A DNA stretch of 64,000 nt from Spirochaetia bacterium UBA5763 (GCA_002418835.1 DIEX01000031.1:137617-201616); one strand, 5' to 3'. Positions 6,348 to 26,631 are shown, numbered from the stretch's first letter. The notes: generated by a model not told the origin, from the letters alone. Made by a program: numbers and translations.

Positions 6348-6589
6348 AATTTCTGCTCAAAATGGTGGAGCGGACTTTCTACCTAATCTAAAATTTATGG
6401 ACATATACTTCTTTCTTGACAAACTTTTTCCGGTGTGAAAATTTTGATTAATTTTTGCCGGACAGAATTACCATTATTTTTTTATCGCTCTGAAAATCCC
6501 TTTTCGCCGGGGATCGGATTGTCACATATATAAAAATCTCTTCAGAGGGTTTTCTTCCCGCAAAAAAATCCTATCGCCAGGAGGAGAGT

Positions 6590-6865
6590 ATGCACATTTT
6601 ATCAGATATGGGACACGGGTGGCACAATATAATCAATGCCAATGGAATATCCATTACTATTGTAGGGATGCTTCTTGTGTTTTTTTCACTTTCTATAATC
6701 AGTTTAATTATCGCTTCAATGCCGCATTTCCTGAAAATTGTTGAAAGGTATTTCCCTGAAGAGGAAGAGGAATTCGCAAAGAAAGGTGTGAAGGCGGTTT
6801 CTGAAACAGAGGTTGTTGCGGCAATAAGCGCGGCTCTTTGTCACAACATGAAGTCTTCTAATTAA
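6590..6865 (+). CDS. oadG: oxaloacetate decarboxylase gamma subunit-like small membrane protein
   Basis: 91 aa, single TM helix then acidic linker (EEEEEF), positioned directly upstream of beta and alpha subunits; GGAGGAG RBS. Confidence 0.5.
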   Translation: MHILSDMGHGWHNIINANGISITIVGMLLVFFSLSIISLIIASMPHFLKIVERYFPEEEEEFAKKGVKAVSETEVVAAISAALCHNMKSSN

Positions 6866-6885
6866 TTGATAAAATGGTACATTAG

Positions 6886-8013: not shown

Positions 8014-8074
8014 CGCGCATGGGGCCATGCAAACACATAATTGTTTTGTTAAAAAAATATAATTGGTGAAATTG

Positions 8075-9880
8075 ATGGGTAAGAAAAGAATAAAGTTTAT
8101 GTGTACAGCATTCAGGGACGGATTCCAGTCTGTATACGGATCAAGGGTGCTCTCAAAAGACTATCTTCCGGTAGTCGAAGCTGCCCGTGACGCTGGCATT
8201 TCATATTTTGAGTCGGGGGGAGGTGCGCAGTTCCAGTCGCTCTTCTTCTACTGCCGTGAAAATGCTTTTGACGTTATGGATGCCTTCAGAAAAGCTGCCG
8301 GGCCTGATGCCAACCTCCAGACACTGGCAAGGGGTGTTAATGTTGTGGGGCTCGATTCACAGCCGGCTGATATTATTGCACTTCACGCGAAGATGTTTAA
8401 AAAGCATGGTGTAACAACTATACGGAATTTCGACGCGCTGAATGATGTCAATAACCTGATATTCAGCGGAAAGTCTATAGCTGATGCAGGACTTAAGCAT
8501 CAGGTATGCGTTACCATGATGGAGCTCCCTCCGGGTTGTTCGGGAGCGCATGATCCTGAATTTTATATGAAGACTTTAAGGTCAATTCTTGATGCGGGAA
8601 TACCCTATGACTCTGTATGCTTTAAGGATGCATCAGGTACATCAGCTCCTTCCAAGGTCTATGAAACAATAAAGCTCGCAAGGAAGATGCTCCCGGAAGG
8701 GACTGTTATAGATTTCCATACTCATGAGACAGCGGGTATCGGTGTCACCTGTTATAAGGCGGCAATTGAAGCCGGTGCTGATTTTATCGACCTTTCAATG
8801 GTTCCTGTTTCAGGAGGTACATGTCAGCCCGATATACTGACCATGTGGCACGCTCTCCGGGGAAGTGAATATGATCTTGATGTTGATGTCGAAAAAGTTA
8901 TTGGTGTTGAGGAATTTTTTCAGGACAGTATGAAGGATTACTTTCTTCCTCCCGAAGCTGTGCGTGTTGATCCCCTTATCCCCTGGAGTCCTATGCCGGG
9001 GGGTGCGCTTACGGCAAATACTCAGATGCTCCGCGATAATAACCTGATGCACAAGTATAACCAGATAATTAAAGCAATGGAGGAGGTTGTTAGGCGCGGA
9101 GGTTTTGGTACCTCTGTTACCCCTGTGTCGCAGTTTTATTTCCAGCAGGCTTTTAATAACGTGATGTTCGGGCCATGGGAAAAAATTGCTGAAGGTTACG
9201 GTAAAATGGTTCTCGGTTACTATGGTAAAACTCCCGTTGAACCTGATCCTGAAATTTTGAAGATCTCCGCAGAGAAATTAGGGATGGCGCCTGCTGATAA
9301 TATCCCCATCGAAATAGATAATTCCAATCCCGCTAAGGGTATGGCACCGGCACGTAACGCGCTTAAGGAAGCCGGGCTCCTCGAATCAGATGAAAATATC
9401 TTTATCGCTGCCGCATGTAAGGAGAAGGGTATTGCTTTTCTGCTGGGCAAAGGTGAAATGGGTGTCAGGAAAAATGAAAAAGCGGAGGTTAAAGCTTCAA
9501 ATCCTCTATCAGCAGGGGCTTCATATACAGTCTCTGTGAACGGTAAAAACTATACTGTTACACTTGATCATGGAAAGACAATTGTTAATGGTAAGATCTA
9601 CAGTACAAGCATAAGGGAGAGCAGTAAGGTAAACGATCCGGTTCAGATGGCTTCAGGTACTCCTGACGGTACAGAGATAAAGTCCCCTCTTCCCGGAAAA
9701 GTTTTTAAAATTATTTGTGATATAGGGGAGCATGTTGAGACAGGTGATACAATCCTTATCCTTGAATCTATGAAAATGGAGACCAGGATAAATTCGACTG
9801 TGTCCGGAACAGTTTCCGAGCTTCTTGTGTCAGAGGGTGACCAGGTGCAGACTAATGATGTTCTTGTGCTTGTGAGCTGA
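8075..9880 (+). CDS. oadA: oxaloacetate decarboxylase alpha subunit (carboxyltransferase + biotin carboxyl carrier domain)
   Basis: KFMCTAFRDGFQS HMGL-like carboxyltransferase N-terminus; C-terminal biotinyl domain with ESMKMET biotin-lysine motif; ORF track starts at GTG 8063, ATG 8075 preferred. Confidence 0.85.
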   Translation: MGKKRIKFMCTAFRDGFQSVYGSRVLSKDYLPVVEAARDAGISYFESGGGAQFQSLFFYCRENAFDVMDAFRKAAGPDANLQTLARGVNVVGLDSQPADIIALHAKMFKKHGVTTIRNFDALNDVNNLIFSGKSIADAGLKHQVCVTMMELPPGCSGAHDPEFYMKTLRSILDAGIPYDSVCFKDASGTSAPSKVYETIKLARKMLPEGTVIDFHTHETAGIGVTCYKAAIEAGADFIDLSMVPVSGGTCQPDILTMWHALRGSEYDLDVDVEKVIGVEEFFQDSMKDYFLPPEAVRVDPLIPWSPMPGGALTANTQMLRDNNLMHKYNQIIKAMEEVVRRGGFGTSVTPVSQFYFQQAFNNVMFGPWEKIAEGYGKMVLGYYGKTPVEPDPEILKISAEKLGMAPADNIPIEIDNSNPAKGMAPARNALKEAGLLESDENIFIAAACKEKGIAFLLGKGEMGVRKNEKAEVKASNPLSAGASYTVSVNGKNYTVTLDHGKTIVNGKIYSTSIRESSKVNDPVQMASGTPDGTEIKSPLPGKVFKIICDIGEHVETGDTILILESMKMETRINSTVSGTVSELLVSEGDQVQTNDVLVLVS

Positions 9881-12285: not shown

Positions 12286-14973
12286 ATGGATCTTAAAACT
12301 TATTTAAAGAAAATAATATTTGCCATGCTGCTGTTAATAATGGCGCACAGTTGCGTTCATGCTTCAGAAAAAAAGAATGTTCTGATATTGAATTCATATC
12401 ACCAGGGTTATAAATGGACAGATGATGAAGTGCGGGGCATTGTCAATGGCCTATTTCCTGAACAGGACAATATTAAAACATATATTGAGTACATGGGTAC
12501 AAAATGGAACTTCAGCAGCGAATACTTAAAAGAACTATGTATTCTGTATAAAAAAAAGTTCAACCAGGTAAACTTCGATGTAATAGTATCTACAGATGAT
12601 GATGCTTTTAATTTTCTTAAAAAATACCGTGATAGTGTGTTCGGTAGAGTACCGGTAGTTTTCTGCGGACTTAACTGGGTAACCCCCGGGAAATTGAGCG
12701 GTATGGGGAGCGTCACAGGCGTTAACGAAACTACTGATATTTCACTAAATTTGTATCTTATGATGAAGATTCATCCTGAAGTAAAGAGGATATATGTAAT
12801 AATTGATTCCACAACAACAGGGATTTCAGTATATAATAAACTCATTGAAATAATGCCTCAGTACAGCGGCAGGATTGAGATAATACCTTTGTATGACCTT
12901 CCAATGAAGACTCTTATTGACAGGGTCTCTTCCATTGAAAGTGATTCTCTTGTCCTGCTGACTATTTTCAGCAGGGATGGTTCCGGGCAGTTTTTTGAGT
13001 ACAATGAATACTCTGAAATTATAACCGGTAATAGCAGAGTTCCGGTCTACGGCCTGTGGGATTTTTATCTTGGCCACGGAATTCTCGGGGGTAACCTGGC
13101 AAACGGATATTCGCAGGGCATCACAGCCGGGAATATTGCTTTAAGGGTACTTAATGGCGAGTCAGTGGAAAGCATTCCTGTGATTCTGGATAGTCCCAAT
13201 ACTTACATGTTCGATTTTTTTCAGATGAAGAGGTTCGGGATTGGAAGAGATCTGATCCCCGCAGCCAGTACGGTAATAAATGAGCCTTCGTCTTTCTACT
13301 CTGTGAATAAAAAGATCTTCAGTTTTATTATAGCATTAACTTTTGCATTAACGATTTTTTCAGTGGTGCTGGTGTTAAATATTCGCAGGAGATATATCGC
13401 GGAAAAATCGCTGAAGGAAAGTGTTGAGCAGTACAGTACACTTGTGAACAACCTTAATGTCGGGGTATTCAGGAGCAACGGGGTTCCTGATGGGTGCTTT
13501 ATCCAGGTTAATCCTGTTATGATAAAAATATTCGGATATGATGACAGGGAAGAATTTATAAAAGTTCCAGTCAGAGACCTGTACCAGGACCCTTCCGGAA
13601 GAGATAATTTTTTAAATAACCTGAAAGATTTAAAAACAATAAACAATATTGAACAGCAGATGAAGAGGAGGGATGGTTCGCTGATATCTGTATCTGTTAC
13701 CGGGAGCGCGGTTTTTAATGAAGACGGGACAATAAATTACGTTGATGGTATTCTTGAAGATATAACTGAAAAGAAGAGGATGGAAACGGAAATAAGGCAT
13801 GCCCAGAAAATGGATACAATAGGGACTCTTGCCAGCGGCATTGCTCATGATTTTAATAATGCGCTGGGTGCCCTGATTGGCGCCGTCAGTCTCATGGATC
13901 ATAAACTCAGTACCGGTATACCAATGACTCTGGAGAAGCAGCTTGAGTATATAGCGGTAATGAAAGAATCGGGGGACAAGGGTATCTCCATGGTTAAAAG
14001 GCTCCTCTCTCTTGCAAGAAAGAATGATTCGGATTACAGGTCTTTCAATATAAATGAGGTTGTAAAAAGAGTAGTAGCACTGCTGACGGGTGTGATTGAT
14101 AAGAGCGTATCCGTAAACTCTTCGTATTACGAAGATAAGGCTTTATCAATGGGGGACCCTGCGCAGATTGAGCAGGTGCTTTTGAATCTATGCATAAATG
14201 CCGGACATGCCATGACCATAATGAGGGCGAATCATGAGCAATGGGGCGGCTCACTGAGCATTATGATAAATAAAGTTTTTCCTGACAGGTATATTTCAAG
14301 GACTCACGCTGAAGCATCTGAAAAAGAATTCTGGAGTATATCTGTGGCCGATACCGGAACAGGGATGTCCGGAGAGGTGATAAGCAGGATATTTGAACCT
14401 TTTTTTACAACAAAAGGTGAAGGTTCAGGCACAGGACTTGGGCTGGCAATGGTTCAGAAAATCGTAAATGAGCATCTGGGGTTTATTGATGTATATTCAG
14501 AACCTGGTGTGGGGACAACTTTTAAAATTTATCTGCCGGTTTATTATGGTGAATCAGAATACAGGCCGCCCGTTATAAGCCCGGGTGATTTAAAAGGGAG
14601 CGGCAGAGTTCTGCTTGTTGAAGATGAACTACTGATTATGAAAATTGCTGAGGAGATACTGAAAGACTGCGGATATGAAGTTTACTGTGCTGATAACGGT
14701 GAAAGCGCACTTGAAATTTTCAGAGAGAAATACAATGAAATAAGTGCAGTTGTCATGGACATGGCAATGCCTGTGATGTCAGGGTTTGTGGCTTTCAGTG
14801 AAATGAGGAAAATTTCGCCCTCTGTCCGTGTGCTGATTGCGTCAGGATGCAGGCAGGACAGCAGAGTGGATGAAGTACTTTTATCTGGTGGAGCGGATTT
14901 TATTGAGAAACCATATACTGTTGAAGAACTGGCGCTGGCAGTGAGGAATCTCATAGAGACGGGGAGTATCTGA
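12286..14973 (+). CDS. hybrid sensor histidine kinase/response regulator with N-terminal periplasmic substrate-binding-like domain
   Basis: 895 aa; signal peptide, about 300-aa SBP-like region, TM, PAS, HisKA (HDFNNALGAL), HATPase (GTGLGLAMV), C-terminal REC (LLVEDE...DMAMP). Confidence 0.8.
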   Translation: MDLKTYLKKIIFAMLLLIMAHSCVHASEKKNVLILNSYHQGYKWTDDEVRGIVNGLFPEQDNIKTYIEYMGTKWNFSSEYLKELCILYKKKFNQVNFDVIVSTDDDAFNFLKKYRDSVFGRVPVVFCGLNWVTPGKLSGMGSVTGVNETTDISLNLYLMMKIHPEVKRIYVIIDSTTTGISVYNKLIEIMPQYSGRIEIIPLYDLPMKTLIDRVSSIESDSLVLLTIFSRDGSGQFFEYNEYSEIITGNSRVPVYGLWDFYLGHGILGGNLANGYSQGITAGNIALRVLNGESVESIPVILDSPNTYMFDFFQMKRFGIGRDLIPAASTVINEPSSFYSVNKKIFSFIIALTFALTIFSVVLVLNIRRRYIAEKSLKESVEQYSTLVNNLNVGVFRSNGVPDGCFIQVNPVMIKIFGYDDREEFIKVPVRDLYQDPSGRDNFLNNLKDLKTINNIEQQMKRRDGSLISVSVTGSAVFNEDGTINYVDGILEDITEKKRMETEIRHAQKMDTIGTLASGIAHDFNNALGALIGAVSLMDHKLSTGIPMTLEKQLEYIAVMKESGDKGISMVKRLLSLARKNDSDYRSFNINEVVKRVVALLTGVIDKSVSVNSSYYEDKALSMGDPAQIEQVLLNLCINAGHAMTIMRANHEQWGGSLSIMINKVFPDRYISRTHAEASEKEFWSISVADTGTGMSGEVISRIFEPFFTTKGEGSGTGLGLAMVQKIVNEHLGFIDVYSEPGVGTTFKIYLPVYYGESEYRPPVISPGDLKGSGRVLLVEDELLIMKIAEEILKDCGYEVYCADNGESALEIFREKYNEISAVVMDMAMPVMSGFVAFSEMRKISPSVRVLIASGCRQDSRVDEVLLSGGADFIEKPYTVEELALAVRNLIETGSI

Positions 14974-15014: not shown

Positions 15015-16733
15015 TTAATTCCTCATACTATTGATCCAGTTCAGTCTGAAATTTTTACCGGAAACTACAGCCTTGTCATATATTTCGACCATGCCATCTT
15101 CCGGAAGGTTTATCCTGGCTTCACTGTTCGCAATAATATCTCTCTCAACATTAATCCCGGGAGCCACACTTACAAGTTCAAGGCCTTTTTCTGTCAGTTT
15201 GAATGCTGCAAGGTGTGTAACATAATAAACTTCTTTTCCTGCTTTCAGCGCCTCCTTCGCAGAAAAGGTTATTTCATCCACTCTTTTCACAAATTTTGGA
15301 ATACCTGGTTCAATAACAGTAAGCTCATTGTTTTTGATCCTGATTTTACTTTTTGCCATGAAGGCTCCGACAAATATTATTTTTCTCGCATTAGCCACGA
15401 GGTTCAGAAATCCTCCAGGACCGATGTAATTTTTTGCTCCTTCAGCTTTTTTAGAAACATTTACATTCCCCTCCTCATCAACCTGAAGTGTCCCGAGAAT
15501 TGTTATGTCGAGATTCCTCTCAACAAGGTGAAACATCTCAGCTGAACTCATCAGTTTTTTCGGATTAAATGCAAGCCCGAAGAAAAAACCGGGAGCCGGT
15601 GTGCCTCCATAAATCCCTGTTTCAAGCATGAAAGTAAGTTTGTCCCCGATACCTGACTGCATTATCTGTCTGCTCACCTCCTGCGGGAGTCCGTAACCTA
15701 TTACACAATGAGCCTCGGGCTGTGATATGTCAGAAAATATAGAAGCTGCCTGTCTCGCAAGTATCAGGTCTTTTTCACTCCTTTCGGGATCTGCTTTTAG
15801 AACAGCATTGAGGGCTTTTATTTTAGCTCTGGCTTTCTCTATATTGCCTTCGCCTCCGGGAACAAGTTCCTTCCACGGTTTTCTCTGCTCCACTGTTCCT
15901 GTTATATCGTTTGTGGGATTGACTACAATTGCATCGATGTATTCCGCTTTTATGTAAATTGCTGATTCATCCTTCGGAATAATTTTTGTAACCGTAACAA
16001 TTGAAACTCCGCCGTTTCTCTTCGCAGCAAGCACCGCCTCTTTTGCCTCAGAATATATCACGGCCTCCTTAACATAGATATTGCCCTCTATGTCTGCTGA
16101 GGGGGCAATAACCACTGCCGCATTAACAGCGGGAATCCTGTACTTCAGCCTGTCTCCATCTACTTCAACAAGCTGTTCTCCAAGGCCCGGGATCACCTGT
16201 GATCCTGCTCCAACACGGGGGTCCATGAATGTGCCCACTCCGACTTTGGTTGTGATATAATCTCTACCCTGGCCCTGGGCTTCTGCGAGATGAGCAATTA
16301 CCCCCTGCGGGAGTACGCCAAGTATACATTCGCCCGCTTCGGCAAGAGCAAGCTGGGCTCTTGCTGTCTCAAGGTGGCCTGAAATAAATTCAGTATTAAG
16401 ACCTTTAAGGCCCACATCTTCCACACTTCCCGGTATCTTTCCACGGGCGCCTGCTCCACCTGCTGTTATCACAGTGAGATTTTTCGGCGAACCTATGGAT
16501 TTGTATCTGTGTCCTATTGCGCTCCAGAGAATCGCAGGGCGTGCGGAAACAGTCATACCCATCCCCATTAAACAGGCGTTATCCGGAATAAGCGCCACAG
16601 CATCGCTGGCGCACATGAATTTAGGATTATCAACACCGGGGTGATAGTTGAAATTAAAGTTGCTTATTTTCTTTTTCCATTTCAGGAGTTTAACAACTGC
16701 TATTGCTGTATTTATAGATTCATTAATAAACAT
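15015..16733 (-). CDS. acyl-CoA:acetate/3-ketoacid CoA-transferase family protein (acetyl-CoA hydrolase/transferase superfamily)
   Basis: 572 aa; two CoA-transferase-like halves, glycine-rich motifs (ITAGGAGARG, GPGGF) resembling YdiF/COG4670-type enzymes. Confidence 0.65.
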   Translation of the reverse strand: MFINESINTAIAVVKLLKWKKKISNFNFNYHPGVDNPKFMCASDAVALIPDNACLMGMGMTVSARPAILWSAIGHRYKSIGSPKNLTVITAGGAGARGKIPGSVEDVGLKGLNTEFISGHLETARAQLALAEAGECILGVLPQGVIAHLAEAQGQGRDYITTKVGVGTFMDPRVGAGSQVIPGLGEQLVEVDGDRLKYRIPAVNAAVVIAPSADIEGNIYVKEAVIYSEAKEAVLAAKRNGGVSIVTVTKIIPKDESAIYIKAEYIDAIVVNPTNDITGTVEQRKPWKELVPGGEGNIEKARAKIKALNAVLKADPERSEKDLILARQAASIFSDISQPEAHCVIGYGLPQEVSRQIMQSGIGDKLTFMLETGIYGGTPAPGFFFGLAFNPKKLMSSAEMFHLVERNLDITILGTLQVDEEGNVNVSKKAEGAKNYIGPGGFLNLVANARKIIFVGAFMAKSKIRIKNNELTVIEPGIPKFVKRVDEITFSAKEALKAGKEVYYVTHLAAFKLTEKGLELVSVAPGINVERDIIANSEARINLPEDGMVEIYDKAVVSGKNFRLNWINSMRN

Positions 16734-16753
16734 ATATTCCTCCTTTATTATAT

Positions 16754-17632
16754 TTAATTCTGCGGTGTAAAACGGTATTCGCCGTTTTTAAGAACATATT
16801 TTCCAAGGCTGTTGATCGCATTAAACACGATACGGTCTTTCTCGCCGGAATCGTATCCGATAATCGTGATTTCATCCCCCGGAAGTACCGGAGTGGCAAA
16901 TCGCATCGAAATACCCTTCATCCTTGTCATGTCGCCATTGCATACTTCATCAAGGAGACAATTTGCTGTCATTGCTGCTATGCATACGCCATGCATAACT
17001 GTTCCGGGGAGACCTGCAAGCCGTGCAAGGAACGGACTTGTGTGAATAAAGTTGGAATCACCGGAAACTTTTGCATACTGAAGAGGCTGTTTCTTTACCG
17101 TGCGGAATTTTTTTCTGAAGAGTTCGTGGTCATATATTTTTTCGTTTCTTCTGCCGATTCTCTCTCTGCGTCTCCCCCGGATTATAAAAACTGTATGTGC
17201 CTCGGCAATTCTGCTGTTACCGACAGAAGCAATAGTTTTAAGATCAATCATCTCGCCTGCTGATGAATCTGTTATATTATCTATGCTCATATCCACATCG
17301 ATGATATCCCCCTCATGTATGTGACCAAGCCACTCAATTGTCTGCTGGCCGTGAACAAGTTTCAGGAGGTTCAGCTTGAGTTCTTTATTTACGAGAAAAT
17401 ATTTGAACATAGGGTATAATAGACGGGAGAGGTAGAATGGAGGAACAGTGCAGTTTTCACCTCTGTATCTCACTGGATTATCCAGGGTGGCTTCCACGTA
17501 AGAGTATATGTCATTGCGGGTAATGGGCCCTATGCGGCTTGTGATCCTGTGGCCGATCATTCCCCTGTTGATTCTTTCAGCCCGTATATTTCTCAGCATT
17601 GCAATGAATAACGGAATATTATTCAGTAACAA
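16754..17632 (-). CDS. MaoC-like (R)-hydratase/dehydratase, double hotdog fold
   Basis: 292 aa; C-terminal GDSNFIHTSPFLARLAGLPGTVMHG motif (MaoC dehydratase signature D-x-N-PIH..A...G..I.HG); 20 bp from CoA-transferase. Confidence 0.65.
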   Translation of the reverse strand: MLLNNIPLFIAMLRNIRAERINRGMIGHRITSRIGPITRNDIYSYVEATLDNPVRYRGENCTVPPFYLSRLLYPMFKYFLVNKELKLNLLKLVHGQQTIEWLGHIHEGDIIDVDMSIDNITDSSAGEMIDLKTIASVGNSRIAEAHTVFIIRGRRRERIGRRNEKIYDHELFRKKFRTVKKQPLQYAKVSGDSNFIHTSPFLARLAGLPGTVMHGVCIAAMTANCLLDEVCNGDMTRMKGISMRFATPVLPGDEITIIGYDSGEKDRIVFNAINSLGKYVLKNGEYRFTPQN

Positions 17633-17792
17633 GTTGAACCTCCTTTTATATTATTTTTTAATATAAAAGTAACGGGTCACTGATGCTGTTTTCGCATTGA
17701 ATTATGATTTTATATACCGGAAAGTATTCCAGAATTATGATTATGCATAGTTTAACTGTTGTTAAGCGGTATTTTTTTATAAAGATGGATGC

Positions 17793-18926
17793 TCAGGCAT
17801 GTTTTCTGCTTTTATCCCGGAACTGCGCGGGGGTCATTCCGTGAAATTTATAGAAAGCATTGTAGAACGAGGTTACTGTGTTAAATCCCACGGCATAAGA
17901 AACACTGAGTACAGAACGTTTGTGGTCTTCCAGGAGATAATTCTCTGATTCACGTATACGGTATTCATTGATGAATGTGTTGAAGTTTTTATTAAGCCTT
18001 TCATTCAGAATCTGAGACAACTGGTATGGTGTGATATCAAGTTCATCAGCAAGTTTCCCCAGTGTTATCTCCTCGTCGCAGAAAACTTTTTCATTCTCCA
18101 TAAGGTATGTCAGCCTTTCAAGCACGCTTTCGACATCTATTCTGTCAATCCGGGATGTTGAGTACCGGATCTTCAGCGCCTCTTCCTTAATATGACGGAT
18201 ATATCCGGGGTATCTCCATTTAAGCAGAAGTATTATGTAAATTTCACATGTCATAATCGCTGAAATTGTTTTAATAATTACAAGATAATATGTGCCGCTT
18301 TGCAGAACCAGTTTTACAACAAGAAATCCTGTTATATAAATAATGATCATGGCAAAGTTGAATGCCACAATCATTATTGAATATAATGTAGTAGTCCTTT
18401 CGATCAGCATCTTTTTTCTGTAGATCCTGACAGCATCTCTCCCGACGGCAAAGGCATATCCGCATATAATTGTCACAATTGAGAGAACTATGTAAGGGTA
18501 TGGGGGAAAGACTTTCGACTGACCACGGAGGCCTACAAAAGTCTGAAGCAGTTCAAGCTTTTCATCCCCGCTTTTAATATAAAAAGGGGCCAGTACTATC
18601 AATATGATTATTACAGGGATAAAATGGCAGAGAGAGGATCTCCTGAACCTGAAATTATCCCTTGTGAGTATCTGGTAGTAGAAATAAAGAAAAGGTGCCG
18701 AAAGATAGAGAAATGGTACATGTACCAGCGCCAGGTGAGGGTGGATGAAGAGAAATCCGGAAATCATAAACCCGTGATATATCTGCCAGATTCCAAGAGA
18801 GCATAAAAAACCGAAAATCAGAAAATGCGCATCTGTGCGCTTTCTTTCCACCAGATGGGCAGTGGCCATCGCGAGAGATAAACACCCTCCGAAAAGCGTG
18901 AAAAATTTAATTATCTCTGTCAGCAT
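17793..18926 (-). CDS. membrane-integrated AraC/XylS-family transcriptional regulator
   Basis: 377 aa; about 230-aa N-terminal region with 6-7 predicted TM helices, C-terminal AraC HTH (TLGKLADELDITPYQLSQILNERLNKNFNTFINEYRIRESENYL...GFNTVTSFYNAFYKFHGMTPAQFR). Confidence 0.75.
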   Translation of the reverse strand: MLTEIIKFFTLFGGCLSLAMATAHLVERKRTDAHFLIFGFLCSLGIWQIYHGFMISGFLFIHPHLALVHVPFLYLSAPFLYFYYQILTRDNFRFRRSSLCHFIPVIIILIVLAPFYIKSGDEKLELLQTFVGLRGQSKVFPPYPYIVLSIVTIICGYAFAVGRDAVRIYRKKMLIERTTTLYSIMIVAFNFAMIIIYITGFLVVKLVLQSGTYYLVIIKTISAIMTCEIYIILLLKWRYPGYIRHIKEEALKIRYSTSRIDRIDVESVLERLTYLMENEKVFCDEEITLGKLADELDITPYQLSQILNERLNKNFNTFINEYRIRESENYLLEDHKRSVLSVSYAVGFNTVTSFYNAFYKFHGMTPAQFRDKSRKHA

Positions 18927-19033
18927 TCAGTTTTATGATTCCGGAATATAATAACGCTATATAACTTAATTTATACAAATATTAAAAAAAAGCAATAAGT
19001 TCTTTAATCAATTGTCCGGCGGATTATACATAA

Positions 19034-19975
19034 TCATGATTCTGGAAAGAAGATGTTCCGGCATAGAGTTGTTTTTGCTTTTAAATTTTCAATCTGCCCC
19101 TGTATACAGGGTCTCGGATTATCACCGCAATATGTGTCAAATCTCAGCCTGTTATGTTGTACTTTTAATTTAATCAGGTATCTGCTGTCGAGAAAGAGCG
19201 GGCCTTTGAATGCAAGGTCGATCCGCAGCGGTGAATCCTTTTCATGCCGGGGGAGCTGCCGTATTGTATCAGCGCAGACCCACATTGCATGTGCTACATC
19301 ACGTTTCAGCCCGAAAAGGGGTGCTGCAAGCCTGGATATGTGAATCGGATTGTAGTCACCTGTTATTCGCGCGAACCGCTTTCCAATATTTTCAGGAATG
19401 TATGATTCGGCGTGTTCTTTACCGTCATAAATCGGTTTAATTATCTCTGAATGGGGTGATGGTGAATACATTGTGCCATAATTCCCTTTTTTCAGCCATG
19501 TTGTTATGCTTTCCCACAGCCTTTCACCATCACTTTTCAGCAGAATTATAAAATCAAATTCGATTCCCTGTTTAACAATACGTTTTTCACCCGTCATGAC
19601 TTCAAGTGTTAATGGCTCATTATCATCAATGGGCCTGTGACGAATAATATGATTCCGCAGGTGAAGTGAACCGATAAGCGGGATCGGAAATTCTTTCCGG
19701 CTCAACAGATGCATATACAGAGGTGATGCAAGAACATGGGGGTAAAGTACCGGAAGTTTCCCGTCATTTTTCAGGCCGCAGACCTCCCTGTAACGTATAA
19801 GGTTGTCGGGATCAGGTGTTATGTTCTCCATTCTCCCGAGCAGACGGGGGAGGGGTGATTCGTAAACTTTTCCCGGTCTGCGGGTAAGAATTATTCTCGC
19901 GTAATTCGCCAGTGATGAAGGTTTTTTACTGAAAGAGAGAATCTTGCGGCTGTTCATATGAATGCTCCTGTGCAT
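19034..19975 (-). CDS. MaoC-like double-hotdog protein (paralog of 16754..17632)
   Basis: 313 aa; C-terminal GDYNPIHISRLAAPLFGLKRDVAHAMW motif parallels GDSNFIHTSPFLARLAGLPGTVMHG in the other hotdog gene. Confidence 0.55.
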   Translation of the reverse strand: MHRSIHMNSRKILSFSKKPSSLANYARIILTRRPGKVYESPLPRLLGRMENITPDPDNLIRYREVCGLKNDGKLPVLYPHVLASPLYMHLLSRKEFPIPLIGSLHLRNHIIRHRPIDDNEPLTLEVMTGEKRIVKQGIEFDFIILLKSDGERLWESITTWLKKGNYGTMYSPSPHSEIIKPIYDGKEHAESYIPENIGKRFARITGDYNPIHISRLAAPLFGLKRDVAHAMWVCADTIRQLPRHEKDSPLRIDLAFKGPLFLDSRYLIKLKVQHNRLRFDTYCGDNPRPCIQGQIENLKAKTTLCRNIFFPES

Positions 19976-19985
19976 GATTTTTAGT

Positions 19986-21806
19986 CTACCAGATTACATA
20001 AATATCTTCTGCCGAAGTAAAAGCACTGGATGTTACTTCATTAAATGCCTGAACTTTGTAGTGATGGATTACACCCCATCTTAAGTCTGAATCAGTAAAT
20101 GTTATACCATCAGTGGATGTAAGGTCTTTCCACGAAATGGAATAAACATCAATTTTACGCTGGATTCTATAAAAAACTGCACCTTTCGCAGCAGTCCAAT
20201 TGATAGTAATATGTTTACTGCTTTTATCATAGTTCAGAGTTAAACCGGTTGGTGTTGCGAAAACAGTATTACCCGTTGCGTACGAACTCCTGTCGCTCTC
20301 ACCGCTGACATTTACAGCAGTTATCCTGTAGTAATATGTTTTACCCACAAAGATTGACGGGTATTCATCTGTATAAGATAATCCTGTCAGACCTGATGCT
20401 ATGAGGTTGTATGTGCCGTCTGCGGATTCTGCCCTGTAGAGTCTGTATGACTCAGCTCCTGCTGTTGAAGACCAGTTTAATATTATTAGAGCATCAGTTC
20501 TGTTTGTTGTGGCCTCAAATCCCGCCGGTACTGCCGGGATTTGAGGCATGGCATATCCTTCATCTGAAATACTTTTATAGCTTTCAACAGAATCAATTCC
20601 GGAACTCCATGCTGTCACTTTGTAAAAATAATGCGTAACAGGATATGGCGGTTTATCAATGAAAGATGTCATTAATATTTTATTAACACCGGATACAAGT
20701 GTATATATGCCGTTTATCGTTTCGCACCTGTATACAGAATACCCTGAAGCTCCGTTTACGGGAGACCATGTTAAAGTAACTGTGTCGTAGTTTCCATCTG
20801 AAGCTGCGACATTAATTGGAGCAGCTGTCTGAACAGGTGCGCCGGATTCTATTTTACCTGAAACGCCAATGCTTCTTTCACTTTCCCCGCCGGAGCTAAG
20901 TGCTGTAACAATATAATAATACGTTACATCAGGTAAAGCTGTTACATCTTCAAAGAGAAGTTCTGTGATATTTTCAGCAATGATAGCATATTCCCCTGCT
21001 GTGCCCTTTTCATCCGGCGCCCTGTAAATATTATAGGTTACATCTTTTAGTGATCTGTTCCATGTGACTTCGACTTTGTTGCCGTAAGTTCCATAAGTTG
21101 CTTTTAAGCCTGTGGGGGAAGCCGGTACATCCTCAAGAGCTATGCCATGAACTGGTTCACCGGGGTCACTTTCACCTTCAGAATTTATAGCTATAACCTG
21201 GTAGTAATACTTTTTATCTCTTGTGAGTAAGGATTCATCTTTATATTCTGTCTGTGTCGATGGTAAATCCGCAGCAAGTCCGGTATATGTACCGTCAGGT
21301 GAATCTGACCTCAGCACTTTGTATGAATCAGTTTGCGGTACAGAAGACCAGTCTATTGTAATATATCCTATTTTATCAGATGATGCTGTTACTCTTTCCG
21401 GTGAAAATGGTTTTCCTGTATGAGCAAATCCCATGGCATCGATACTGGGGGAGCTCCATGTTGTTCCACTCCCTGCGGCAACCTTGTAGTAGTAAACCCT
21501 GTTAGGTGTAACTTTATTATCTATGTAATACAGGGTTTTGATGTTCGATGCCACTACGCGGAACTGGTCCCTGTTATCAACCGATTTGTAAATGACGTAA
21601 TATTCGGCTCCGTCAGCGGCATCCCAGACAACTTTAACACTGGAGTTAAATTCACCTTCAGTTGCTGTGATTCTGGAGGGAGTGTGAGGTGCTCTCCCCG
21701 CGCCGGGATCTGCACTGTCACCGCTCTCTCCCCCTCCGCAGGAAAAGGATAAGGCAACTGCTGCAACCAGTGGCATCAGAAATATTTTAAAATTTATAAG
21801 TTTCAT
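19986..21806 (-). CDS. fibronectin type III repeat surface protein (probable lipoprotein)
   Basis: 606 aa; signal peptide with LSFSC lipobox-like site; at least five FN3-like repeats with recurring W..S....Y.VY.....G.Y and YYY.V.A.N..GES motifs. Confidence 0.65.
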   Translation of the reverse strand: MKLINFKIFLMPLVAAVALSFSCGGGESGDSADPGAGRAPHTPSRITATEGEFNSSVKVVWDAADGAEYYVIYKSVDNRDQFRVVASNIKTLYYIDNKVTPNRVYYYKVAAGSGTTWSSPSIDAMGFAHTGKPFSPERVTASSDKIGYITIDWSSVPQTDSYKVLRSDSPDGTYTGLAADLPSTQTEYKDESLLTRDKKYYYQVIAINSEGESDPGEPVHGIALEDVPASPTGLKATYGTYGNKVEVTWNRSLKDVTYNIYRAPDEKGTAGEYAIIAENITELLFEDVTALPDVTYYYIVTALSSGGESERSIGVSGKIESGAPVQTAAPINVAASDGNYDTVTLTWSPVNGASGYSVYRCETINGIYTLVSGVNKILMTSFIDKPPYPVTHYFYKVTAWSSGIDSVESYKSISDEGYAMPQIPAVPAGFEATTNRTDALIILNWSSTAGAESYRLYRAESADGTYNLIASGLTGLSYTDEYPSIFVGKTYYYRITAVNVSGESDRSSYATGNTVFATPTGLTLNYDKSSKHITINWTAAKGAVFYRIQRKIDVYSISWKDLTSTDGITFTDSDLRWGVIHHYKVQAFNEVTSSAFTSAEDIYVIW

Positions 21807-21836
21807 AAATCCCTCTCCTGCTGACAGTTTTTCATT

Positions 21837-23462
21837 TTAAGCATTTATATTTTTCGGTTTACTCTTCTTTTTATTGCCGGATTTACTTTTATCCGGTTGT
21901 TTCTCTTCAGTTCTGTTTTTTGTTTCTTCAGAGTAACTGCTTTCCTGAATCCTGTATGTAATTCCTATAGCAATACTGTATCGTTTTTCATCGTAATCCT
22001 TACGCAGGTAGCTTAATGTGGGTTGACTTACGTTTACATATTCTGTTGTATAAGCGGTTGCAGGGATGAATATCTGGTAAAAGGCTCCTATGTTTAAATC
22101 TATTTGATCATCAACATGGAATAGGGCTCCCCCTCCAATCTGATGTGAATTCAGCAGCGGATCAGCTTCAGTTCTTTTGTCAGGTTTTATTCCGAATTCG
22201 TTATATAAATAACCGATACTAAGTGTGACTTTCGGGCTAAGGATAAACTCAGCACCTCCACCAGCCTGATAACCGGTATTGTAATCTTTCTCTCTTCCGC
22301 CGAGATCACGGTTTTTCCGGAAGGACAATTGGGCTGATGAGAGGAGGTTAAGCCAGTCAAACAGCATATATGACAGTCCGAAGTTCAGGGTAGAGGGGTA
22401 TGTAACCTTCAAGGTTTTATCTCCGTTCCCTTTTTCGTAAGTCATATCTTTTCCCGATGAACCGTCTTTAAATATGTTCAGATTTCCGCTCTTTTCTATG
22501 AGGGAGGGTGCAATGAATTTGTTGGTTTTCTTCTCAAGTTCCATTGGAGGGTAATACTCGAATCTGAATGCGGCTTCCAGACCTTTAAGTGCGGAGATGA
22601 TCGTCCCGGCCCTGAAGTGAGTGCTAAGTATCAGGCCTGTACCAAAACCTGATGTATCTGTATCTATATCCCATCTGTTTTCAGTAACAGGAATACTTTC
22701 CAGTACAGGCCCGGAGCCCTGGTCTACAACGAAATTGATATTATTTATGCCAACTTTCATATTCCCCTCAGCGTGAATAAATCTCAAGCCGCCTCCTGCG
22801 GAAATCCAGTTTGCAACCTGGTATGCGCCGCCGACAGTGATTCCTATATACATTTCGTTTCTGACGGCTTCTGCATTCCGGGTATACTGTATGAGTTTGT
22901 AGGCAGGATCAAATTCTGTTTCTTTACTAAGAAGGTTGCCCCAATCCATGACAGCAAGTCCATCGGGGTATGTCATGTCAGTGGCAGCCTGCATTACTGC
23001 TATATCGAAAAACAGGGCAAGGTTTTCCTGTTTCCAGACTATGTCAATTCCGGGAACTATAGGAGCTGTAAGTTCCGCCGGATACTCTTCAGTAAGACAA
23101 TTATTAAAATCAGCTTTTTTATGTGGCGGGGACACAGGTATAGTTTCAGTATTAAGTTTCTGAAGTCCGTAGAAATCCATGCTATGCGTTCGTTTCACGT
23201 AATATGTCTGGCTTGAAAAGGATATATGCAGTCCGTTCTTTGTCATAAACGCGAGTCCGGCAGGGTTGTAGAATGCTGCATCAGGATCTGTTGATGTATT
23301 CCGGTTCAGTGTCCGTACATATTCAGCGGAGTGATTGGTCATTATCCCATCCTCCTGATGCAGTTCACTTCCTGCCGTATCCATCGAAAGTATTATTAAT
23401 ATCTGGATTATAAATAAAGCTGTCGTACAATTGCCGCGGAACTGTTTTCTTCGTTTTTTCAT
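21837..23462 (-). CDS. FadL/OmpP1/TodX-family outer-membrane transport protein
   Basis: 541 aa; signal peptide; conserved hatch-domain motif FYNPAGLAF (NPA motif of FadL family); beta-strand-rich; ends in aromatic-rich barrel segments. Confidence 0.6.
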   Translation of the reverse strand: MKKRRKQFRGNCTTALFIIQILIILSMDTAGSELHQEDGIMTNHSAEYVRTLNRNTSTDPDAAFYNPAGLAFMTKNGLHISFSSQTYYVKRTHSMDFYGLQKLNTETIPVSPPHKKADFNNCLTEEYPAELTAPIVPGIDIVWKQENLALFFDIAVMQAATDMTYPDGLAVMDWGNLLSKETEFDPAYKLIQYTRNAEAVRNEMYIGITVGGAYQVANWISAGGGLRFIHAEGNMKVGINNINFVVDQGSGPVLESIPVTENRWDIDTDTSGFGTGLILSTHFRAGTIISALKGLEAAFRFEYYPPMELEKKTNKFIAPSLIEKSGNLNIFKDGSSGKDMTYEKGNGDKTLKVTYPSTLNFGLSYMLFDWLNLLSSAQLSFRKNRDLGGREKDYNTGYQAGGGAEFILSPKVTLSIGYLYNEFGIKPDKRTEADPLLNSHQIGGGALFHVDDQIDLNIGAFYQIFIPATAYTTEYVNVSQPTLSYLRKDYDEKRYSIAIGITYRIQESSYSEETKNRTEEKQPDKSKSGNKKKSKPKNINA

Positions 23463-23485
23463 TTATTAACCTTCCGTGTTATTTT

Positions 23486-25387
23486 TTACTGTCCGTCATT
23501 CCAGCTTGTACTCCAGTCGTAACTGTCAGTGAATGGATAAGGTTTAGATGATTTGAAAATCTGTCTGTTCGTTGTTCCCATATATGTAATGTCAGTATAG
23601 GAATCTGATGCTTCTACGGTTTCTCCTCCATCAACCTTTATGTGGTATCCCAGGGTTGCGGCGTCCTCACCCTCGGCAGTTCTTACGTAGAATATTGTTC
23701 CCGGTTTGGTGCAGTTATACCCGTCTTTTGTAGCGACTCCGTCTAATTTCGCCTCCTGAGTACCGTTCGCGATAAAACCGCCATCGTTATACTTAAAACC
23801 GAGTTTACCGTCGTTGTAATTTGTAAGAGCAATGGTGCTTGTTGGCGACAGAGTGATAGACCAGTTCATAGTGCCGCTTACGAGTCCGCTTACTTTCTTG
23901 GAATTACCCCCTGCGGATGGTTTAGGTTCCCATCTGCCGGACTTTGATTTATCAAGAGAGGGAGCATATATTCCCCAGTAGAACTCGTCAATATTCAGAA
24001 GTTTAGCATAAACTGTATATTTTTTCTGTGTTGTATTATCACCGGCCACTACAGTGATATCAATCTTTGTGACCAGTCCGTACTTGAGTGGTATAACTGC
24101 TGCCGATGTACCGCTACTGAAGTCTGAAGAAACTGAAACCCCGTCAGCTGCAAAACTGATAGCTTTTACAGTGCTGTCCTCGGCAGTCGCAGTTATCTTG
24201 ATTGAGTCAAAGCCGTATATCACTGTGCAGTATTCATTTACAGTGCTGCTGAAGCCTGTCTGTTCCGGATTGTGGTACGATGCGCCCCGTACAAATGATC
24301 CGGGGTATAGCGGCCTGTAACTCTTTGTGCCCATCATCACCGTAATCCCTGAAAGATTGGGATTATCACTCCCCTGCAGGCTGTTCGCGTTGATCGTGTA
24401 AGTGGTTGAGCCTCCGCCGGATGCGGTGACAAGCACAGTGATTACGCTTATAACTCCGGGTGGAAGCGGGATAGGGGAGGTGTTGCTGACATCAGAGCCG
24501 TTAAGTTTAATGCTCACAACTGAATTTGCAGATTCAGCAACAGCAGAAAGATTAACAGGATTCATTGTTGAAGATACATCGATATTGTACGATGTTATAT
24601 CAGGATCAAAAATCCTGTCAAATTCCCCTCCGGCAATGGAGAGAACCGCAAGTCCTGATGATGTCGTTGATTCGCTCTGCCGTATTATGGTAATGGTGTA
24701 TGTATCCTCTGTTTTGCCGTCTGGAGCTATCCCCTTTATTTTTATTATGTTTATTCCCTGGTTTAAACTGATTGCTGATGTATCAGTAATTTTTATATTG
24801 TTTACTCTTACTTCGGTTTTCGCCCCTTCAGATTCAACGGCAGGCACCGCGACTAATGAAATTACTGATGCCGTAGTCATTGCTGTGAAATTTCTGTTTG
24901 AACCTGATGCATCAAATTCCGGTGCAAGTGAAATTCCATATATTGACAATTGAGAAAGTTTTGCGACTGAGTAATTTTCTGAGCATCTTATAACGTAGAT
25001 GGTATAAATAAGTTCCTGGCCATCTTCAGCTATTACCTTTATATGAATTGTGTTTGAGCCGACTTCCAGTGATATTGGATTAGAAGCAGAGTTATCATAA
25101 AGTTTTTCATCACCAATAAAGATTTCGGACCACGGGTGATTTGCAGCAGTTGTAACAGATATTGAATCTGTTGTGTAAGGGACTTCGAGGTAGTTAATCC
25201 AGTCTTCGGAGTTAAACGGATATCTTAGTGTTCCCTCAGAAAAAGAGAGGCTTTTTATAAAGTAGTCGGAGCTGAGGCCATCTTCAATTTCTGTTGCCGG
25301 CATGCCCCCGATGCTGCTTTCGCATCCGGTAAGAGCTACTATGGTTAATAATGATACTGCCATAAGAATCCGTTTTATATTATTCAT
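23486..25387 (-). CDS. lipoprotein with tandem cadherin-like beta-sandwich domains
   Basis: 633 aa; lipobox LTGC; repeated LSxLSI.G..L.P.F....Y...V......V.V.A modules typical of cadherin-like beta-sandwich (PF12733-type) domains. Confidence 0.6.
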   Translation of the reverse strand: MNNIKRILMAVSLLTIVALTGCESSIGGMPATEIEDGLSSDYFIKSLSFSEGTLRYPFNSEDWINYLEVPYTTDSISVTTAANHPWSEIFIGDEKLYDNSASNPISLEVGSNTIHIKVIAEDGQELIYTIYVIRCSENYSVAKLSQLSIYGISLAPEFDASGSNRNFTAMTTASVISLVAVPAVESEGAKTEVRVNNIKITDTSAISLNQGINIIKIKGIAPDGKTEDTYTITIIRQSESTTSSGLAVLSIAGGEFDRIFDPDITSYNIDVSSTMNPVNLSAVAESANSVVSIKLNGSDVSNTSPIPLPPGVISVITVLVTASGGGSTTYTINANSLQGSDNPNLSGITVMMGTKSYRPLYPGSFVRGASYHNPEQTGFSSTVNEYCTVIYGFDSIKITATAEDSTVKAISFAADGVSVSSDFSSGTSAAVIPLKYGLVTKIDITVVAGDNTTQKKYTVYAKLLNIDEFYWGIYAPSLDKSKSGRWEPKPSAGGNSKKVSGLVSGTMNWSITLSPTSTIALTNYNDGKLGFKYNDGGFIANGTQEAKLDGVATKDGYNCTKPGTIFYVRTAEGEDAATLGYHIKVDGGETVEASDSYTDITYMGTTNRQIFKSSKPYPFTDSYDWSTSWNDGQ

Positions 25388-25639
25388 AAAACCTCCGTAA
25401 AACCGACTCGTCAGTTCTTGAAAATATACTAATATATCGTTTTCGTGTCAAATTTTTTATAATTTTTTTTAGATTATGTAAGCTTTTAATGTTAAATTCT
25501 TATTAGTGATAAGATTTCATATTGTAGAATCTTTGATTGTCTAAAAAACGACGTTCATAATGTTAACTGTACATATTTTTTTAAGTGTCAACAGCACTAT
25601 TGCGGGGGTGGAGTGTTACGAAAGAATAATTATCGGCTG

Positions 25640-26275
25640 TCAGTTCTTTTCAGGCTGGTACATATTCAGTGTATTTTCTATGACCTTGACCATTTCATCT
25701 GTAAGGCTGTCCATGTCATGAATATTGTAGTTCTGTTTTTTAAGGACGAAGTAAAAGTAGGAGATTCTTAAAACACCGCCAAGAATTACATTTCCTGCAA
25801 AATCGATGTTCAGGCTGCTGCTAATATGTCCGAACTGTTGTCCGATTTTAATGTCATCCACAATGGCTTTCATTACAGAATCCTCGAAAATGCGTACAAC
25901 ATGTTCAATAACATCATTAAGGCCGCTGCTCATGCGGAGAATTATATTTGCCCTGTCCTGGTTTTCAGCGAAGAAAGCCATAGTTTTAGCTATCCTGTGC
26001 CGCAGGTAAGCTCTTGCGTAATCCTGACCTGTGCCCTGGCCCATGAAGTCGTTAAGGTTCAACGCGACCTTGTTCTCCCATTCGACTACATATTTCTCAA
26101 TAAGAGATATGTAAAGGCTTTCCTTGTTTCTGAAATACTGGTATATTGTACCCTTTGCAATCTGCGCGAGTTTTGAAATATCAGAAACCTGGGACTCATA
26201 GTATCCCTTTCTGGAAAAAGCTTTTTCTGCGCAGATGAGGATGTGTTCTTTGGTCTGTTCACCTTTTTTAAGCAT
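25640..26275 (-). CDS. TetR/AcrR-family transcriptional regulator
   Basis: 211 aa; N-terminal HTH (KEHILICAEKAFSRKGYYESQVSDISKLAQIAKGTIYQYFRNKESL). Confidence 0.8.
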   Translation of the reverse strand: MLKKGEQTKEHILICAEKAFSRKGYYESQVSDISKLAQIAKGTIYQYFRNKESLYISLIEKYVVEWENKVALNLNDFMGQGTGQDYARAYLRHRIAKTMAFFAENQDRANIILRMSSGLNDVIEHVVRIFEDSVMKAIVDDIKIGQQFGHISSSLNIDFAGNVILGGVLRISYFYFVLKKQNYNIHDMDSLTDEMVKVIENTLNMYQPEKN

Positions 26276-26353: not shown

Positions 26354-26631
26354 AAAAATGAGTCGGTAAATTTTAATAAAACTGTTCATAATTATAAAGC
26401 ATATGCGGATGATTGGCAAGTTATTTATTGTAAAAATTATTTCAGTTGAGATTGTTGTTATTTTGGGAGTGAATCCCGGGGCCTGTTATTCAGTAAATCC
26501 CGGACCCTGATTATGCCCTGAGTTGCTTTTCATTCAATTATTAACTTGACTTTCATTATTTCAGGGTGTCTGTTTCGGAATAAGCGGAACAAACCTGCCG
26601 TATCAATGACTGAAATAACAGGATTAATTTT

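Follow-up and report, generated by a model that had tools for sequence, protein, structure and literature searches.

A 64,000-nucleotide stretch of DNA from the Spirochaetia bacterium UBA5763 (GCA_002418835.1, DIEX01000031.1:137617-201616), referred to here as the window, carries on its minus strand, between positions 15,015 and 26,275, a locus in which the gene for an outer-membrane protein (OMP) of the FadL type lies among genes for large lipoproteins, regulators, and enzymes of coenzyme A (CoA) chemistry. The locus consists of two units. Unit A (19034-26275) contains a TetR-family gene and an operon for a cadherin-like lipoprotein (Cad), the OMP, a second lipoprotein with FN3 repeats, and a double-hotdog protein (hotdog1), while unit B (15015-18926) contains a membrane AraC-type regulator, a second double-hotdog protein (hotdog2), and a CoA-transferase. 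All of the evidence considered below is genomic or comes from structure prediction. Given this evidence, it is proposed that unit A is a TetR-repressed operon encoding a transport-type FadL channel, its immunoglobulin (Ig)-repeat lipoprotein partners, and an (R)-specific hydratase, and that it stands beside an AraC-controlled CoA-transferase and hydratase that act on the same hydrophobic acids. We hold this reading tentatively, as one that is quite possible but falls just short of probable. The features of the locus, in window coordinates, are:

25640-26275, minus strand: TetR-family regulator, 211 amino acids (aa); PF00440, 45.5 bits
25423-25451, minus strand: candidate sigma-70-like promoter 5' of the Cad gene, TTGACA-17-TATATT; a consensus match only (11/12)
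25400-25417, strand not assigned: palindromic operator-like site GAACTGACGAGTCGGTTT; a conserved intergenic block
23486-25387, minus strand: Cad, lipoprotein with cadherin-like domains, 633 aa; PF12733 four times, 153 bits
21837-23462, minus strand: FadL-family OMP, 541 aa; PF03349 (Toluene_X), 34.6 bits
19986-21806, minus strand: FN3 lipoprotein with six FN3-like repeats, 606 aa; PF00041, 68.6 bits
19034-19975, minus strand: hotdog1, HtdX-like double-hotdog protein, 313 aa, last gene of the operon; PF01575 (MaoC_dehydratas)
17793-18926, minus strand: membrane AraC-type regulator, 377 aa; HTH_18 at residues 292-371
16754-17632, minus strand: hotdog2, double-hotdog MaoC protein, 292 aa; FAS1_DH_region and MaoC_dehydratas
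15015-16733, minus strand: family I CoA-transferase of the YdiF/propionate-CoA-transferase type, 572 aa; FadX-like by NCBIfam, YdiF match

Domains of the window proteins were assigned by Pfam and NCBIfam searches. An original prediction, made from the sequence of the window, had described eight minus-strand genes in this locus with a TetR regulator at their head; all eight open reading frames (ORFs) have been found where it placed them, and a gene with a TetR_N domain does lie first, 252 bp from Cad. The prediction had also read an operon of lipoprotein, OMP, FN3 protein, and hotdog protein from gene spacings of 10-30 bp, and the measured gaps agree: 23 bp between Cad and the OMP, 30 bp between the OMP and FN3, and 10 bp between FN3 and hotdog1. 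A similarly short gap (20 bp) separates hotdog2 from the CoA-transferase gene. Besides the TetR-Cad interval, longer gaps are found between hotdog1 and AraC (107 bp) and between AraC and hotdog2 (160 bp). Given the sizes of these gaps, the locus comprises at least three transcription units rather than one operon.

Gene order was then compared in loci fetched around homologs of the OMP (designated by L numbers), in which the eight window proteins were mapped by tblastn together with all-against-all clustering of ORFs. The Cad and OMP genes are adjacent in 29 non-redundant loci from metagenome-assembled genomes (MAGs) of Spirochaetota, with OMP identity reaching down to about 41%. In 16 loci, the FN3 lipoprotein is the third gene and follows the OMP, except in L018, where it precedes it; in another clade, a second cadherin-like protein occupies the place of FN3. 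A TetR gene adjoins the module in about 10 loci, including L005, L009, L011, L012, L014, L015, L018, and L017, and in the last of these the adjacent TetR is divergent (34% identity). L018 has been rearranged to Cad, FN3, OMP, TetR, with TetR downstream and the set kept together. To go by the names of their MAG records, many of these relatives were sampled from anaerobic digesters, from sludge, or from wastewater reactors.

The other genes of the locus behave differently. The hotdog1 gene lies 3' of FN3 only in relatives whose OMP is at least 82% identical, among which L005, L007, and L011 hold orthologs, and in L009, where the OMP is 65% and hotdog1 43% identical. The AraC, hotdog2, and CoA-transferase genes adjoin the OMP module only at OMP identities of at least 82% (L007, L008, L011), and in L061 such a triad stands by itself; consequently, the 10-kb locus is two modules, which have been joined in one genus. 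The expectation that its genes would be conserved together across relatives is thus upheld for TetR, Cad, OMP, and FN3, even in the rearranged L018, but not for the locus as a whole. As one co-conserved system it fails, since hotdog1 and the genes of unit B are limited to close relatives (with the addition of L009 in the case of hotdog1).

Several MAGs carry two or three OMP paralogs, and the surroundings of these paralogs are informative. RA.bin95, for example, has Cad, OMP, and FN3 in L029. In L030 (6353-11488) of the same MAG, a TetR gene, a family III CoA-transferase that is non-homologous to the CoA-transferase of the window, and a Succ_CoA_lig/CoA-binding gene resembling an ADP-forming acyl-CoA synthetase lie directly 5' of an OMP paralog, and in its L047 (3780-11644), a membrane AraC with 44% identity to that of the window stands in a row with a lipoprotein of Lig-like architecture (1567 aa, 11 Big_2 domains) and an OMP paralog. 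The same synthetase-like gene is followed by an OMP paralog in L026 (22-3002), and the OMPs of L030 and L026 are 41-43% identical. Furthermore, a membrane AraC lies directly 5' of an OMP paralog in L041 and L044, an FN3 lipoprotein lies downstream of one in L046, and Big_5 lipoproteins are found nearby in L043 and L041. Taken together, these loci show that two themes recur with non-homologous parts: a FadL-type barrel with an Ig-repeat lipoprotein, and a barrel with CoA-activating enzymes and a sensor of the TetR or membrane-AraC type. This recurrence is the main indirect support for a reading of uptake plus CoA activation.

The assignment of the OMP to the FadL family comes from sequence and from its modeled structure. 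The OMP scores 34.6 bits against PF03349 (cut-off 29.7) in a match that spans only residues 206-504, that is, the C-terminal part of the protein. Its parts are a signal peptide, an N-terminal hatch with NPAG, a 14-strand barrel, and a disordered, Lys-rich tail. In the AlphaFold2 (AF2) model, obtained with 28 homologs in the alignment (pLDDT 85, pTM 0.79), 14 long strands connected by short periplasmic turns were counted by our own parsing of the DSSP string, and three short helices (46-51, 60-63, 67-72) before strand 1 form a plug. DSSP places breaks in strands 7, 8, and 13 and none in strand 3. When the model was compared with the Protein Data Bank (PDB) by Foldseek, the top 24 matches were all FadL, TodX, TbuX, or CymD (E 5e-19 to 1e-12), with a TM-score on the target of about 0.66; the FadL homolog of Pseudomonas aeruginosa is also among the first-ranked matches. 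BamG chains (ranks 25-27) and PorV (8gl6_F, rank 35) are significant but lower matches.

Conservation points to the same region as the model. NPAGL occupies residues 66-70, and N66, P67, A68, and G69 are invariant in the 28 homologs. The most conserved part of the protein is formed by the N-terminal 40 mature residues (ELHQEDGI...DAAFYNPAGL), in which ELHQEDGI is mostly invariant. Signal peptidase is predicted to cut directly before E33, and an A-x-[AST] pattern is present there across the homologs. This places NPA at mature residues 34-36, compared with 33-35 in Escherichia coli FadL (as in the mutant names N33A and P34A). The model thus gives the OMP a barrel of the FadL fold, whose hatch is conserved, and the FadL-like protein with an NPAGL hatch that had been predicted is borne out, as both the 14-strand barrel and the hatch are present in the model and NPAG is invariant. 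A search for the OMP among 1.84 billion representative proteins gave only about 13 full-length matches above 430 bits, 300 at E<=1e-30, and 1374 at E<=1e-3, and the homologs come almost entirely from uncultured Spirochaetota MAGs. Since the profile of this family does not reach any solved FadL, the OMP represents a remote branch of the superfamily. The tail of the OMP (residues 509-541, window 21837-21935) is about 35 residues long, disordered, and Lys/Ser-rich; it follows the last strand (...GITYRI) and has no terminal aromatic residue. The tails of the homologs are K/E/S-rich and variable in length.

Both Cad and the FN3 protein bear a lipobox (LTGC at residues 19-22 of Cad; LSFSC, with the Cys at 23, in FN3). 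In its AF2 model (pLDDT 84.6), Cad is built of consecutive beta-sandwich domains that lead into a beta-rich domain of about 170 aa at the C-terminus, and it is in this last domain that most of the invariant columns of the Cad alignment fall. The domain has no Pfam match even at E<=10, and a fold search with the whole Cad model could not be used to place it, as the matches were dominated by the Ig repeats. In the FN3 protein, a YYYxVxA motif recurs every 95-98 residues (105, 200, 296, 393, 491). In six loci, a gene for apolipoprotein N-acyltransferase (Lnt) is found next to or near the module of lipoprotein and OMP: in L003 at 5959-7542, in L021 and L023 directly 3' of FN3, and in L004, L025, and L042 about 8 kb off. 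The recurrence of Lnt may either be a remnant of synteny or point to a connection with the maturation of lipoproteins.

The nature of these lipoproteins raises another hypothesis for unit A, namely that it is a surface-display or adhesion complex whose barrel anchors or assembles Ig-repeat adhesins, as BamG does for BamH and PorV for cargo of the type IX secretion system. The cadherin-like, FN3, Big_2, and Big_5 repeats, the fold matches with adhesins and S-layer proteins, and the recurrence of Lnt near the module would all suit such a complex. In addition, the BamG and PorV structures are themselves significant matches of the OMP fold, and FadL homologs whose loops bind surface lipoproteins have been described before (PMC12578637). 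However, BamG, which does not act in transport, carries 10-12 additional residues at its N-terminus, a conserved extension by which the lateral opening is plugged (PMC12578637), and the FadL-like spacing of NPA from the mature N-terminus means that an extension of this type is absent from the OMP. The hatch and NPAG, which are important for transport, are precisely what the family has conserved most; FadL and TodX lie far above BamG and PorV in the fold ranking; and the PorV/PorQ family model (NF033709) gives the OMP 16.6 bits against a cut-off of 90 bits. Furthermore, control by a FadR-like TetR and a hydratase inside the operon suit catabolism better than adhesion. We consider an adhesion complex unlikely.

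The regulation of unit A was approached through the region between TetR and Cad. The best NCBIfam match of the TetR protein is the Bacillus-type FadR (NF053878), at 61 bits over its full length and below the cut-off of 200 bits, so that only membership in the TetR family (PF00440) is established. A repeat search of the region by itself gave nothing but AT-rich chance repeats, and it was by comparing orthologous intergenic regions that the operator came to light. When the sequences between TetR and Cad from seven loci were aligned, the -35 and -10 blocks proved to be conserved, and so did a palindrome with the family consensus AAACYGAC-NN-GTCRGTTT, which lies 3' of the -10 box and 5' of the ribosome-binding site. 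In the window, GAACTGACGAGTCGGTTT starts 6 bp 3' of the TATATT -10 box and lies 13 bp 5' of the Cad ATG. This is the single copy in the window: no second copy was found 5' of TetR, AraC, or hotdog2, and only the half-site-like ACCGACTC is present 5' of TetR. With up to 2 mismatches allowed, the 1.04 Mb of fetched loci contain 20 matches to the palindrome, and 18 of the 20, spread over 14 distinct loci, are found just 5' of a gene for Cad, OMP, or TetR. It is also found in loci without an adjacent TetR (L001) or with divergent paralogs (L035, L037, L042, L045).

These results are strong evidence, at the level of sequence, that the palindrome is a conserved operator. TetR is probably the repressor of the Cad-OMP-FN3-hotdog1 operon; both its binding to the palindrome and its ligand are matters that we infer. 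Two further observations concern these upstream regions. In L035 (8588-11581) and L037 (8043-11614), the OMP paralog and a sulfatase gene point away from each other, and the palindrome lies in the upstream region that they share. On the other side of the window's TetR gene, between it and a divergent alpha/beta-hydrolase gene, the direct repeat AGTRAATCCCGGRSCCTG is present in two copies, 24 bp apart (26468-26509).

The enzymes of the two units can be assigned from their motifs and closest solved relatives. Hotdog1 aligns with HtdX of Mycobacterium tuberculosis (3wew) over residues 49-263 with an E of 2e-25, hotdog2 is closest to 3kh8 and to hydratase-2 structures of the MFE-2 type, and PF01575 is above its cut-off in both. 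The hydratase-2 motif, [YF]-x(1,2)-[LVIG]-[STGC]-G-D-x-N-P-[LIV]-H, which carries the catalytic Asp and His, is matched exactly by FARITGDYNPIH at residue 201 of hotdog1 and, with Phe replacing Pro, by YAKVSGDSNFIH at residue 186 of hotdog2. Hotdog1 is consequently predicted to be an HtdX-like (R)-specific enoyl-CoA hydratase/3-hydroxyacyl-CoA dehydratase, and hotdog2 a MaoC (R)-specific enoyl-CoA hydratase. The closest solved relative of the CoA-transferase is E. coli YdiF (2ahu, E 7e-52), with which both its alpha- and beta-like halves align (40-275, 345-536) and whose catalytic E333 corresponds to E371 (MLETGIYGG). Its best NCBIfam match is FadX of Staphylococcus aureus (NF052271), at 211 bits compared with an equivalog cut-off of 750 bits, and its homologs carry the name 'propionate CoA-transferase' from the Joint Genome Institute (JGI). 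The AraC protein has 5-6 hydrophobic segments in residues 1-235, followed by a C-terminal helix-turn-helix domain (HTH_18). The membrane-embedded AraC regulator of the original prediction, as well as its two double-hotdog proteins and acyl-CoA transferase, can therefore be retained, with the hydratase-2 motifs present in both hotdog proteins and the catalytic Glu of the transferase kept. A pathway of the itaconate/mesaconate type (CoA-transferase, double-hotdog hydratase, and lyase) was also considered for unit B and set aside, as the lyase gene is absent.

The complement of enzymes also bears on what the channel might carry. FadL-family channels are known to carry hydrocarbon-type substrates, and in the fold search the OMP had TodX, TbuX, and CymD among its highest-ranked matches. 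The channel might import a hydrophobic compound that is not an acid, such as an aromatic hydrocarbon, a terpene, or a sterol-like molecule, with the CoA enzymes engaged at a later stage of its anaerobic degradation. However, neither the window nor the related loci examined contain fumarate-adding enzymes, carboxylases, or oxygenases for the activation of such a compound, and the associated enzymes all belong to carboxylate/CoA chemistry. Import of this kind seems very improbable.

These findings can be combined in the model favored here, in which both units would serve the use of hydrophobic carboxylic acids, that is, fatty, hydroxy-fatty, or enoyl acids. In this model, a TetR repressor would sit on the palindrome, which would overlap the transcription start of the Cad-OMP-FN3-hotdog1 operon. 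Once the operon is expressed, a hydrophobic molecule would cross the outer membrane through the hatch-gated, FadL-type barrel. Cad and FN3 would be dedicated partners of the barrel, in a physical complex with it and probably on the cell surface, where they would hold the substrate or its carrier particle near the channel. In unit B, the membrane-embedded AraC sensor would control the YdiF-type CoA-transferase and the MaoC hydratase. Through the transferase, the free acid would be activated with CoA drawn from a donor, for example acetyl-CoA, rather than at the expense of ATP, and the hydratase would interconvert 2-enoyl-CoA and (R)-3-hydroxyacyl-CoA.

Several results argue for this model. A hydratase is found inside operon A in two lineages, the membrane-AraC family occurs both beside OMP paralogs and beside the pair of MaoC and CoA-transferase, and the FadR that the TetR protein resembles is acyl-CoA-responsive. 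Others weigh against it. The OMP module lacks a nearby CoA enzyme in more than 25 loci, that is, in most relatives; the AraC-MaoC-CoA-transferase triad of L061 is independent of an OMP module, its CoA-transferase being 63% identical; and more distant homologs of the CoA-transferase, in Myxococcota and Desulfobacteraceae, stand alone. The known YdiF-type transferases prefer short-chain acids, for which no FadL channel would be needed. In addition, no acyl-CoA dehydrogenase, thiolase, 3-hydroxyacyl-CoA dehydrogenase, or FadD is encoded nearby. As for the proteins of unit A, the profile of the OMP family retrieved no solved FadL from the PDB sequences, and the membership of the OMP in the family consequently rests on a weak Pfam hit and the fold; adhesins, S-layer proteins, and cadherins are the best fold matches of the whole Cad model; and neither Cad nor FN3 has a hydrolase, lipase, or recognizable lipid-binding domain in Pfam. 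The coherent system of uptake and CoA activation that was originally predicted is thus supported in part, by the FadL fold, the catalytic residues, and the context of the paralog loci, but it is not one co-conserved unit.

Some of the same facts could be explained if the two units were functionally unrelated. Unit A would still import a hydrophobic compound, but unit B would be a self-contained module for short-chain acids, which has come to lie next to A by chance in this genus; crotonate or 3-hydroxybutyrate, for example, would be linked to CoA, and the resulting ester would undergo hydration or dehydration. The independent triad of L061, the many loci with A and without B, and YdiF as the closest solved relative of the transferase are what this hypothesis would lead one to expect, and so are the gaps of 107 and 160 bp that set the units apart and the occurrence of the TetR-type operator only once in the window, 5' of Cad. 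It accounts less well for the end of operon A, which is a hydratase of the same enzyme class, for the same membrane-AraC family next to OMP paralogs in L041, L044, and L047, and for the independent, non-homologous CoA-activating genes directly 5' of OMP paralogs in L030 and L026. Chance adjacency is therefore somewhat unlikely in our view, though it deserves serious weight, and a functional link between A and B is kept as a conditional part of the favored model.

The remaining genes of the window add little to this picture. The original prediction had pointed to an acyl-ACP (acyl carrier protein) thioesterase and a hydrolase elsewhere in the window, and both genes exist (4805-5569 and 5580-6347). 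However, they lie about 10 kb from the locus, and unrelated genes for an oxaloacetate decarboxylase, a chemoreceptor, and a histidine kinase intervene; their position and these intervening genes rule them out as parts of the system. The decarboxylase genes (6886-9880, plus strand) encode the beta subunit of a Na+-translocating oxaloacetate decarboxylase and an alpha subunit of the biotin carboxylase type, and beside them lie a GntP permease (85-1422) and a DUF4147/MOFRL protein (2405-3775), which we take to be glycerate-kinase-like. A hybrid histidine kinase (12286-14973, plus strand) has a periplasmic sensor of the ABC_sub_bind type, a PAS domain, and a receiver domain, and it is convergent on the CoA-transferase gene; in the same position, the 82% relative L007 has a shorter homolog of 741 aa with a separate Response_reg gene beside it. 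Finally, a 445-aa protein encoded at 40111-41448 on the minus strand has a signal peptide, is beta-rich and Asp/Gly/Tyr-rich, belongs to no Pfam family, and is probably another outer-membrane barrel.

How does this locus compare with known systems? E. coli FadL, Pseudomonas putida TodX, and Ralstonia pickettii TbuX share with the OMP the 14-strand barrel, the N-terminal hatch, and NPA at the same mature distance. In contrast to them, the OMP has about 100 additional residues, long loops (103-126, 166-188, 318-349), and the Lys-rich disordered tail, and it is only 9-14% identical to the solved structures of the family. Unlike the OMP here, neither FadL nor TodX is known to share an operon with a pair of large lipoproteins. 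In Vibrio cholerae, the surface lipoprotein VolA, said to be a lipase-type enzyme, is reportedly tied to a FadL homolog for the use of exogenous lipid; Cad and FN3 differ from it in being Ig-repeat proteins without a hydrolase domain, and neither is a lipase or phospholipase partner of that kind. In the Bacteroidota, SusC/SusD utilisomes with SusE/F-like lipoproteins combine an outer-membrane transporter with multi-domain beta-sandwich surface lipoproteins that capture the substrate. Nevertheless, the Sus barrel is TonB-dependent, has 22 strands, and handles glycans, and the phylum is another one. The enzymes of unit B resemble E. coli YdiF and S. aureus FadX, along with hydratases of the MaoC/PhaJ/HtdX group, in keeping the catalytic Glu and the hydratase-2 motifs, but the transferase falls below the FadX equivalog cut-off, and there is no surrounding beta-oxidation operon of the fadDEBA type.

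A FadL-fold barrel with a surface lipoprotein partner is also found in the BamG-BamH pair of Bacteroidota and its paralog pair Bt1785-Bt1786 (PMC12578637). BamG, however, belongs to the machinery for beta-barrel assembly (BAM), whereas the OMP has FadL-like N-terminal spacing, ranks nearer to the transport FadLs, and is under TetR beside a hydratase. VolA-FadL in Vibrio and BamG-BamH in Bacteroidota are the nearest precedents for the pairing of barrel and lipoprotein, and searches of the literature have found no description of a FadL homolog in an operon with cadherin-like, FN3, or Big lipoproteins.

All of these comparisons lead to a broader hypothesis, which is speculative and which we regard as possible but rather doubtful. 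In it, FadL barrels in a lineage of uncultured Spirochaetota would be stably bound, in the outer membrane, to surface lipoproteins whose Ig repeats are interchangeable in kind (cadherin-like, FN3, Big_2, Big_5). They would carry out a TonB-independent, 'utilisome-like' capture of insoluble or particle-bound hydrophobic substrates and pass these on to the channel, with each paralog having its own membrane or acyl-CoA sensor (AraC or TetR) and CoA-activation enzymes. FadL channels are usually pictured as stand-alone diffusion channels. If true, the partnership would extend the principle of a barrel plus a surface lipoprotein, seen so far in Sus glycan uptake and in the BAM of Bacteroidota, to hydrophobic substrates and to the Spirochaetota. 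The turnover of lipids and fatty acids matters in the digester, sludge, and wastewater processes from which many of the relatives' MAGs seem to come, and the conserved operator provides a marker for the regulon. In addition, the pairing may aid the interpretation of FadL paralogs and Ig-like lipoproteins in pathogenic spirochaetes.

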